Assembly (NCBI GenBank): GCA_016176505.1
Contig: JACOXB010000008.1
Span: forward strand, 984-64,983
Length of the DNA: 64,000 nucleotides
Origin: Candidatus Colwellbacteria bacterium
Lineage (GTDB): Bacteria > Patescibacteriota > Minisyncoccia > UBA6257 > Colwellbacteraceae
Reading direction: 5' to 3'
Shown here in pieces: positions 39,914 through 40,912 of this stretch; positions within the stretch are counted from its first letter, which is position 1, and the number at the start of each line of letters is the position of its first letter. The translations under genes and the position numbers were made by a program. The notes under the pieces were generated by a model, which was given only the letters and a program-made list of their open reading frames with translations, did no database searches and was not told where the DNA came from.

Positions 39914-40201
39914 CCGGAGTTCGACTGCTCGGACTTCGTTATTTACCTCGTATCCCTGGATGCGGTTATTATAACAGGTTCTAAACCAGGAAGTCAGGAA
40001 ATAGGAACTAGGAAAAGAGAATATGGTTGACAGATAGGCGTTTTAATGATTCTCTTAAAGCGCACCTTGAAATAGAAATTTTACTTGCGGATTTTGGTCC
40101 CAACCTTGAGCGGTAAAGCCATTCAGGGTTGGGACCAAGATGGCGAGCCTGGGGCCCTGGCAAAAGTCGGGGTGAGGGGCGAGCCAGAAAGGAGGCCAGC
40201 G

Positions 40202-40810
40202 ATGGCCAAGAAGGATGTGCACGCGATGGTGGCGGGGATGGGCCTCGCTGCCGGATTTATCGAGACCCTGGTTACGAAAGCCAGGGCTCGAGGGGTTTCG
40301 GACGAGGCGATCCGTCGTCTCGGTACCCCTGAAGGTGAGGCGCTGATCGACCTGTTGATCGAGGAGATGGCAAGGCAGTCTTGGCCTACGGTTGTCGGGC
40401 CGTACCGAACAGTGATCCTCTATCACGTCCCAATCGAGGACCTGATCCAAGAGGGTGCGTATGGTCCTCGAGCTCGTCTCGTCGGAGTGGATGACACGCC
40501 AAGTCGATCTATCCACGCCGCCGAGCGAGAGTTCTTCCTCCTCTGCCCGGAGCAGAAGATGTCCGATCAGGCGGTTCGGCAGATCATTGCCGATCTGGGC
40601 TTCAGGCCGGCTGATCAGCGCGAGCTACTCTCCTTCGGGAGGGTGCATCCCGGTGAACAGCTGAAGTTCGACATCGCCGGGCTCGGGACAGTCGACAAGA
40701 ACGGTTCCTGTTTGGTTCTCACTCGAATGGGTGAAGATCGGGCGCTGGTAGCCACCAGGGTGATCCCCGACTGGGGAGAGGACGTCCGCTTCCTCATCAT
40801 CCGCAGGTAG
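40202..40810 (+). CDS. Hypothetical protein of GC-rich cassette 3
   Basis: The track ORF is 40085..40810. Start chosen at ATG 40202 (MAKKDVHAMVAG...) because it lies 6 nt after the ribosome-binding site GAAAGGAGG. GC3-rich codons, and a GC-rich hairpin with T-run follows the stop. Confidence 0.55.
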   Translation: MAKKDVHAMVAGMGLAAGFIETLVTKARARGVSDEAIRRLGTPEGEALIDLLIEEMARQSWPTVVGPYRTVILYHVPIEDLIQEGAYGPRARLVGVDDTPSRSIHAAEREFFLLCPEQKMSDQAVRQIIADLGFRPADQRELLSFGRVHPGEQLKFDIAGLGTVDKNGSCLVLTRMGEDRALVATRVIPDWGEDVRFLIIRR

Positions 40811-40912
40811 TCGCACTTCAGGCCTCGCCTGGGCAAGAGCTCCGCTCATCGCCCGGGCGGGGCCTCCTGCTTTTAGGATTAAAGTTGCCCCTCGTTAGTT
40901 ATACTTAAGTTA

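Follow-up and report, generated by a model that had tools for sequence, protein, structure and literature searches.

The window, a 64 kb stretch of Candidatus Colwellbacteria DNA, contains a GC-rich block (40095-40870) that carries a single gene, an open reading frame (ORF) of 202 codons provided with a structured leader and a 3′ hairpin. It is flanked by infC, rpmI and rplT, which lie on the minus strand, and by smpB, the tmRNA gene, argS and ileS, which lie on the plus strand. An earlier note on this DNA had counted it as the third of three compositionally foreign cassettes (here cassettes 1 to 3). The comparisons set out below make it probable instead that the block is a stand-alone expression module for a divergent variable protein of the type served by diversity-generating retroelements (DGRs), but without the diversifying retroelement. 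As a DGR-related gene the window copy adds a member to a known kind; its leader RNA and the GC excess of its family go beyond current descriptions.

The unusual composition is as had been claimed. The block has 62.0% GC against 47.7% for the window, and it is the stretch of highest GC content of its length, 776 bp (z = 4.3), equalled by none of about 6300 such stretches. The step is sharp, from 36-38% at 39951-40100 to 63-68% at 40101-40250, with a drop at about 40870. The GC content at third codon positions (GC3) of the ORF is 0.71, compared with 0.41-0.57 in every native ORF, and at these positions A and T are both depleted. The elements described for the block are all present, with coordinates displaced by 1-5 nt. 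The AGGAGG, the ATG, the 202-codon frame and its stop (40808-40810) were found as stated, and the perfect 10-bp core of the 5′ hairpin was found in a slightly shifted position (40096-40105 paired with 40127-40136). The TTGACA box upstream exists too, but its partner hexamer is poor and the site is unlisted in the promoter scan; the equivalent position in homologous loci is occupied by strong TTGACA/TATAAT promoters. Likewise, the stem beyond the stop codon is real, but the T-run claimed to follow it amounts to four residues and attracts no terminator call. The features are collected in Table 1.

Table 1. Features of the block, with the paralogous block upstream of it in the last row (positions in the window; L085 and L086 are homologous loci, R1 a covariance model of the leader motif; both are introduced in the text)
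Feature	Position	Strand	Description and basis
Promoter-like site	40027..40055	+	-35 TTGACA (40027-40032), 17-nt spacer, poor -10 TTCTCT (40050-40055) preceded by TG
Long leader hairpin	40091..40141	+	about 20 bp stem, 13-nt loop; inverted repeat and minimum-free-energy fold
Three-helix leader RNA motif	40142..40185	+	GGCGA-GCCU-GGG-[P3 hairpin]-GAG-GGGC-GAGCC; covariance model R1
Shine-Dalgarno AGGAGG	40190..40195	+	4 nt past the motif, 6 nt ahead of the ATG; sequence
ORF, 202 aa, NCBI HYS89_01530	40202..40810	+	divergent member of the CPR DGR variable-protein family; phmmer, family HMM
N-terminal helical domain, residues 1-59	40202..40378	+	helices H3-29, H34-39, H43-59; AlphaFold2
Putative C-terminal C-type-lectin-like domain, residues 62-202	40385..40807	+	Foldseek, weak but consistent
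Segment equivalent to the variable region, residues ~160-202	40679..40807	+	looks degenerate; comparison with variable and template regions of L085 and L086
GC-rich 3′ hairpin	40820..40865	+	begins 10 nt past the stop; site of the family's bipartite CTTGG hairpin
T-run TTTT	40871..40874	+	5 nt beyond the stem; no terminator call
Cassette 2, divergent paralogue	35461..36166 (block 35461-36230)	+	family HMM, hhalign

The protein family and its retroelements

The 202-residue protein had been said to show no obvious motifs. This holds for Pfam, PHROGs, NCBIfam and PADLOC, scans of which gave no usable match, but a large homologous family exists. A word-seeded search of 5.8 billion proteins returned only the protein itself (HYS89_01530, from a Candidatus Colwellbacteria metagenome-assembled genome, MAG). 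An exhaustive phmmer search of 1.84 billion cluster representatives, with a cut-off of E <= 1e-3, gave 282 matches, mostly from bacteria of the Candidate Phyla Radiation (CPR), the best of them other than the protein itself at E = 7e-26; among about 15 billion proteins the next best is 36% identical. A profile search contributed a further 169 proteins, all of them annotated as "hypothetical" and none with a Pfam domain, whose named sources are Niyogi-, Lipton- and Andersenbacteria, Paceibacterota and one "Rokubacteria" MAG. Most members are 195-220 residues long and can be aligned from end to end; those from CPR bacteria are mutually only 25-36% identical. The consensus reads ...GKYDWxNxDIT..FP...LVHF.R..S....EL...GLRPA...ELLAFGAKYP..QREFPIVALGSVW....G.R.VP.L......R.L.L.W....W....RFAAVRK. 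The family hidden Markov model (HMM) recognises the window protein with 197.5 bits (E = 8e-60), and its membership follows from full-length homology to proteins that bear a variable region. For this family of DGR variable proteins, which has no Pfam, NCBIfam or PHROGs model, a profile is now available for annotation.

An AlphaFold2 model of the protein (mean predicted local distance difference test score, pLDDT, 87.4) consists of three N-terminal helices and an alpha/beta C-terminal domain. When the latter was compared with PDB and BFVD by Foldseek, C-type lectin domains predominated among the matches, including a phage DUF1566 protein; the best have probabilities of 0.91-0.94, E = 0.03 and target-normalised TM-scores of 0.42-0.54, which is weak. 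The C-terminal domain is therefore predicted, on weak but consistent structural evidence, to adopt a C-type-lectin-like fold, the usual scaffold of DGR variable proteins (PMC5006420, PMC5758913). At the level of sequence no match to a solved structure was obtained in PDB for this domain, and the PDB profile matches that did appear, to designed helical repeats, covered the N-terminal helices only and were treated as spurious. Some members of the family, among them P0004, P0011, P0020, P0031, P0033 and P0043, are 330-580 residues long with two or three matched stretches; to judge from these stretches, the lectin-like domain seems to be duplicated in tandem in them or joined to other domains.

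The link to retroelements comes from the neighbourhoods of the homologues. The genes for P0152 and P0153, and likewise those for P0194 and P0249, are followed directly by an inverted bAvd gene (PF22296) and the gene for an RVT_1 reverse transcriptase (RT). In the loci L085, L086/87, L169 and L170 the order is target, template region (TR), Avd on the minus strand and RT on the plus strand. This resembles the B3 architecture (target - TR - inverted avd - RT) of Wu et al. 2018, to which 90% of their CPR set belong, with targets that are mostly unannotated (PMC5758913); an entire DGR clade was placed in Patescibacteria by Roux et al. 2021 (PMC8144416). In L085 and L086 the final 131-139 nt of the gene recur 483-537 nt downstream with 84-85% identity, and nearly all mismatches fall where the downstream copy has A. 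A scan of the fetched loci for such repeats identified 20 (19 of them distinct) with TR, Avd and RT directly downstream of the family gene, namely L085, L086, L089, L094, L101, L110, L122, L138, L141, L147, L153, L156, L158, L159, L161, L163, L166, L168, L169 and L170; 15 of these were found among 80 metagenome loci. Three further loci have a TR on a contig that ends before the RT gene, and two of the three also show Avd. In about 20 homologous loci the variable region (VR) takes up the final ~130 nt of the gene and the TR lies 300-550 nt downstream of it, and in most of the DGR loci TR adenines account for 17-29 of the 19-32 mismatches, the share being lower in L138 and L158. On this sequence evidence the homologous loci, mostly from CPR bacteria, qualify as DGRs with the classic VR/TR signature. 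A VR within the gene, an adenine-specific TR, an inverted Avd gene and an RT gene together point to mutagenic retrohoming, which would act on the ligand-binding face of the lectin fold. One complete cassette, that in L169 (JACQFL010000018.1, the "Rokubacteria" MAG), is embedded amid genes of conjugation and mobile elements, for DUF87/TrwB-type ATPases, DUF932, RadC and PD-(D/E)XK proteins, a context which suggests that some cassettes of this family travel on integrative or conjugative elements.

These loci also bear on the composition of the block. Across the 20 DGR cassettes the mean GC content is 56% for the target outside the VR and 66% for the VR, whereas RT and Avd each have 40% and the remainder of the locus 46%, and wherever the flanks are below about 55% GC the family gene is richer in GC than they are. 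Since the target is GC-rich beside AT-rich RT and Avd genes of the same cassette, a contrast in GC is not in itself a sign of a GC-rich donor: high GC is a stable property of the gene family. Adenine avoidance was considered as its cause and rejected, A and T being both depleted at third codon positions. We know of no published explanation for the GC excess of a target over its own RT and Avd. In CPR genomes the anomalous GC content of a gene can thus be intrinsic to its family and need not mark recent transfer, which is a caution for composition-based island callers.

A subfamily occurs on contigs of 55-63% GC (L092, L096-L098, L100, L102-L109 and about 30 more, mostly JGI Ga-type records). 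It can be aligned from residue ~19 and its genes have the GC content of their flanks; within 6 kb of them no TR, Avd or RT was found, and the R1 leader motif described below is absent.

The leader RNA and the 3′ hairpin

The window gene has a structured leader of ~110 nt; the stretch 40060-40210 folds with a predicted free energy of -80.3 kcal/mol, well below that of shuffled sequences (z = -8.6). When the 180 nt preceding each family gene were aligned, a conserved element emerged immediately ahead of the Shine-Dalgarno sequence. It reads GGCRA-GCCU-GGG-[7-12-bp hairpin]-GAG-GGGY-GAGCC and in the window comprises 44 nt. Conserved G-U wobble pairs border its 3x3 internal loop, GGG/GAG, which hardly varies. 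An AGGAG-type site follows 1-12 nt after the motif in nearly all the family loci examined; in L134 an extra hairpin separates the two. RNAalifold predicted 15 pairs for the motif, 13 of them with compensatory changes, and a covariance model, R1, was then built from 18 sequences. In the window R1 matches at 40140-40187 with 61.2 bits (E = 6e-18), and nothing else there scores above 17 bits. In 591 kb of family loci it has 31 instances (28 distinct), all of them directly 5′ of a family gene and on the sense strand, while 605 kb of control CPR DNA gave no match. In the model-based alignment 14 of the 15 pairs covary and 94% of the cells are paired, a level reached by none of 500 shuffles; controls in which the alignment was slid gave 31-49%. 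The motif thus combines a covarying structure, a fixed position in the 5′ untranslated region (UTR) and restriction to one gene family, as a cis-regulatory RNA should, and the conserved G-U pairs beside the GGG/GAG loop indicate a sense-strand RNA rather than a DNA site.

Searches for a described counterpart were negative. Rfam 15 contains no gathering-level match to the block, and none to 40142-40185 even at E <= 10; the matches to the long hairpin that appear at E <= 10 (miRNA, Yfr11) have 17-21 bits against thresholds of 44-94 and were set aside as chance. IMG/VR, scanned for exact occurrences of the motif pattern, yielded none, and hence no sign of carriage by phages. The nearest precedents are RT-10 and other RT-associated RNA motifs (Weinberg et al. 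2017, PMC5737381), which likewise are structured and were recognised by covariation near DGRs or RTs. The present motif differs from them in lying in the 5′ UTR of the target gene, in being kept in copies without an RT, and in having no Rfam 15 match.

The long hairpin upstream of the motif has 19-nt arms that are 89% complementary, with 20 pairs if G-U is counted. It had been taken to mark the boundary of the cassette, but it proves to recur in the 5′ leaders of the family. Of 26 distinct leaders, 9-10 have a hairpin of 51-66 nt with 19-24 pairs that ends 0-5 nt before the motif, with differing sequences; in L170 and cassette 2 such a hairpin occurs but the motif does not, and in loci that lack the hairpin a strong TTGACA/TATAAT promoter takes its place. 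Its recurrence next to the motif identifies it as part of a transcribed leader module and not as an insertion scar.

As to function, the motif would most likely control the initiation of translation by way of a protein or small ligand; on inspection by eye, the Shine-Dalgarno sequence showed no alternative pairing that is conserved. The long hairpin may be a site for RNase III, a stabiliser or an insulator. It is tempting to suggest that the 44-nt element, often accompanied by a hairpin of about 52 nt, represents an undescribed class of cis-regulatory RNA for the variable-protein genes of CPR DGRs, with the GGG/GAG loop as the protein or ligand site that gates translation of a hypermutated lectin. 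This is offered as a tentative proposal, quite possible but falling somewhat short of likely. If it is correct, then taken with the GC excess of the family it would mean that DGR targets carry conserved cis information outside the VR and the initiation of mutagenic homing (IMH) sequence, and that information could bear on when the diversified protein is expressed or on how the retroelement finds its target. A leader RNA found only with these genes, and missing from Rfam, also offers a handle on the control of DGR-target expression, of which we found no account in the DGR literature cited here.

At the other end, a bipartite hairpin of CTTGG repeats, its two stems split by a TT/TT internal loop, adjoins the stop codon of most family genes, and a canonical terminator is usually separate and placed after it. 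Examples are L085 6622-6690, L141 6207-6262 and L156 6613-6668. Covariation in this hairpin is modest (5 of 10 pairs). The stem in the window, at -40.8 kcal/mol (z = -3.5 against shuffles), occupies the same place and has the same initial CACTT. As an intrinsic terminator it failed the test, since the terminator scan is silent and the TTTT is set off from the stem. In DGR targets a GC-rich inverted repeat located after the IMH promotes homing (PMC3240598, PMC5758913), and the bipartite hairpin of the family may be the CPR equivalent of this repeat; the stem in the window may accordingly be a homing inverted repeat, a terminator stem, or both.

A known site of this kind is that of Mtd in Bordetella phage BPP-1 (Guo et al. 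2011, PMC3240598). There, as is predicted for the family of the window gene, a C-type-lectin variable protein has its VR at the extreme C-terminus, with a GC-rich inverted repeat soon after. The window gene, on the other hand, is chromosomal and from a CPR bacterium, not a phage tail-fibre gene, and shows no detectable sequence similarity; its stem is far longer, about 15 + 4 bp, compared with an inverted repeat within a 24-bp element. A further difference concerns the other flank: passages of the BPP-1 report describe sequences upstream of the VR as dispensable for homing (PMC3240598), whereas the family here has a conserved 5′ leader RNA.

Orphan gene, remote target or foreign cassette

Within the window no retroelement accompanies the gene. 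Searches by tblastn with two family-linked RTs and two Avds gave only short segments there, the best at E = 0.04, and blastn (word size 7) detected no second copy of 40621-40880 across the 64 kb that could be a TR. The 202-residue protein is a singleton at 90% clustering, with no variants among about 15 billion proteins, unlike several DGR-linked homologues, which have multi-member clusters; four assemblies are 100% identical across the gene. The protein retains 22 of the 39 positions that are conserved at >=85% in the family and has lost the other 17, and it ranks near the bottom of the family profile matches. The losses are concentrated in the part equivalent to VR and IMH, where a near-invariant Trp and an Arg are deleted and RFAAVRK has become RFLIIRR; the codons equivalent to the IMH have thus diverged, while at the site of the family's 3′ hairpin there is an inverted repeat. 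Given the lack of TR, Avd and RT in 64 kb, the absence of variants, the identity of the assemblies and the loss of residues, the window copy is most likely an orphan that is not diversified. Its protein would bind a ligand through a lectin surface that is not, or not now, rewritten. Other stand-alone members of the family, with no RT within 6 kb, are those in L088, between ileS and recO, and in L128.

Set beside the CPR-type DGRs (Wu et al.; clade 2 of Roux et al., PMC8144416), the window protein shows full-length homology to the targets of complete cassettes. The VR of these homologues comprises the C-terminal ~45 codons; the leader is common to them and the window copy, as are the predicted lectin-like fold and a 3′ inverted repeat at the corresponding place. 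The window copy departs from them in having no TR, Avd or RT within 64 kb, a degenerate VR/IMH equivalent and no evidence of diversification.

The strongest competing explanation, though we regard it as unlikely, is that the gene is an active target which a DGR elsewhere in the genome, beyond the window, diversifies in trans. Remote, non-adjacent DGR targets are known, Avd, TR and RT being able to act in trans; the Treponema denticola DGR has seven of them (PMC5758913). The window gene resembles such targets in that a target-type gene lies apart from the RT and an inverted repeat is kept 3′ of a VR-like segment, and its ORF and leader motif are intact, with the GC-rich repeat, of the kind that promotes homing (PMC3240598), placed 10 nt past the stop. 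The members in L088 and L128 show the same separation from an RT. Remote targets are defined, however, by a distant TR that matches the VR save at adenines, and in the 64-kb window there is none; the reported cases all lie outside the CPR lineage. Against trans diversification there is also the lack of any protein variant among about 15 billion proteins, the identity of the four assemblies, and a VR/IMH-equivalent segment that has lost residues conserved in the family, including those encoded by the IMH. Cassette 2, moreover, shares no DNA similarity with the gene, so a single TR cannot serve both.

Several points nevertheless weigh against regarding the block as the module of an orphan lectin. 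The window shows 64 kb of the genome, and a DGR elsewhere could use the gene as a remote target, which the retained 3′ inverted repeat would permit. Consensus assemblies mask VR diversity within a population, so identical contigs are weak evidence of inactivity. The lectin assignment draws on Foldseek E-values that are weak (0.01-0.5) and has no sequence match to a solved structure behind it. The functions ascribed to the leader motif and its hairpin are read from position and conservation. Finally, simple avoidance of adenine does not account for the GC-richness of the family, A and T being jointly depleted at third positions.

The position of the gene was compared with 580 kb around smpB in 80 Parcubacteria-type genomes (L005-L084). 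In 60 of the 80 the order is argS<- smpB-> ssrA-> infC-> rpmI-> rplT->, whereas in the window (38417-43411) it is rplT<- rpmI<- infC<- [gene->] smpB-> ssrA-> argS->. No relative has a family member near smpB (within about 4 kb). In the closest of them, L005, whose SmpB is 91% identical, the common order is found, with smpB, tmRNA and infC uninterrupted and the gene absent. The divergent orientation of infC and smpB recurs in L006, L040 and L053; of these, L006, another Colwellbacteria MAG, has different genes in the gap and L053 has only about 260 bp between the two. The gene orders are those of an in-place inversion of smpB-ssrA in the window, with the 202-codon gene at the breakpoint proximal to infC. 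The gene is absent from this site in all these relatives, and would thus be an accessory, lineage-specific one there.

This leaves the foreign origin proposed in the earlier note, which may be extended to a recent import from a GC-rich donor, one of three by a common mechanism, with the 5′ hairpin as an insertion signature resembling an integron attC site or a miniature inverted-repeat transposable element (MITE). The compositional anomaly stands, as does the lineage-specific presence of the gene at this site. All three blocks have GC and GC3 far outside the native range, each consists of one gene with promoter-like and terminator-like signals between housekeeping genes, relatives lack the gene at this site, which is an inversion breakpoint, and one subfamily of the protein resides on contigs of 55-63% GC whose composition it matches. 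The high GC, however, is intrinsic to the gene family: in DGR cassettes the target is 16-26 GC points above its own RT and Avd, and members only 25-36% identical are too old for the composition of a donor to have been kept by chance. In many unrelated genomes the hairpin lies inside the 5′ leader, beside a conserved RNA motif, and the conserved G-U pairs of that motif show that the leader acts as sense-strand RNA. The insertion signature that the three blocks were expected to share was not found, comparison of their flanks having disclosed no common direct or inverted repeats, and cassette 1 is unrelated to cassettes 2 and 3. The window contains no RT or Avd homologue, integrase and transposase genes not having been specifically searched for. 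The likeness to integron attC cassettes is confined to the one-gene content and odd composition of the units and to the imperfect inverted repeat that accompanies each. In the block the hairpin is 5′ of the gene and inside its leader with a promoter-like site upstream, the units are not arrayed, and the three blocks have no repeat in common, the integrase gene again not having been specifically searched for. Identity as an integron gene cassette was rejected on the position of the hairpin and the promoter-like box. Taken together, this makes recent import of the block highly improbable.

That the block is an artefact, a GC-rich fragment of another organism joined chimerically to a CPR contig in assembly or binning, is suggested by the abrupt change of composition at both edges but is scarcely credible, since four independent Logan assemblies of different sequencing runs, one of them spanning infC to ileS, reproduce the block and both junctions of the NCBI MAG at 99.9-100% identity, and the same step in GC is seen for homologues on contigs as long as 507 kb.

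Other blocks and repeats in the window

Cassette 2 is a divergent paralogue of the gene in the block. Its promoter, TTGACA-17-TATAAT (35461-35489), is perfect; the leader contains a hairpin of 60 nt (35536-35595) but no R1 motif, and the ATG is at 35630. An in-frame TGA at 35726-35728 interrupts the frame, which then runs on to 36166. The C-terminal part is matched by the family HMM (E = 1e-9), and hhalign aligned 145 columns with 94.8% probability (E = 5e-8). As this alignment continues across the TGA, cassette 2 is probably a pseudogene, or else is read from an internal ATG at 35798.

Cassette 1 (block 29990-30810, GC3 0.78) adjoins tRNA-Arg(CCG) at 29896-29969 and contains an ORF of 196 aa (30179-30769, HYS89_01480), which is provided with a promoter-like site of its own and, at 30774-30807, a canonical terminator. 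It showed no relation to the DGR-target family and no match in the family libraries; among 5.8 billion proteins it has two partial homologues, about 60% identical over half its length and without DGR context. A common origin of the three cassettes was rejected on this ground.

Two other features of the window were recorded. A direct repeat of 123 bp, 98% identical between its copies, occurs at 39322-39444, in the unusually long gap of 455 bp between infC and rpmI, and at 46919-47041, just upstream of tRNA-Leu(CAG); a 23-nt piece of it is found again at 57848-57870. The repeat holds the stable hairpin UCGGCUUGGUCUCCGACUCAAGUCGGAGCGAGCAGGCCGA, and Rfam gave nothing at gathering score in the whole window. 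Lastly, the gene for a PolX-PHP DNA polymerase (36257-38008) contains a perfect tandem duplication of 30 bp at 36359-36418, the product of which is in frame, QTIADLEEDI-QTIADLEEDI, and belongs to the N-terminal helix-hairpin-helix region.

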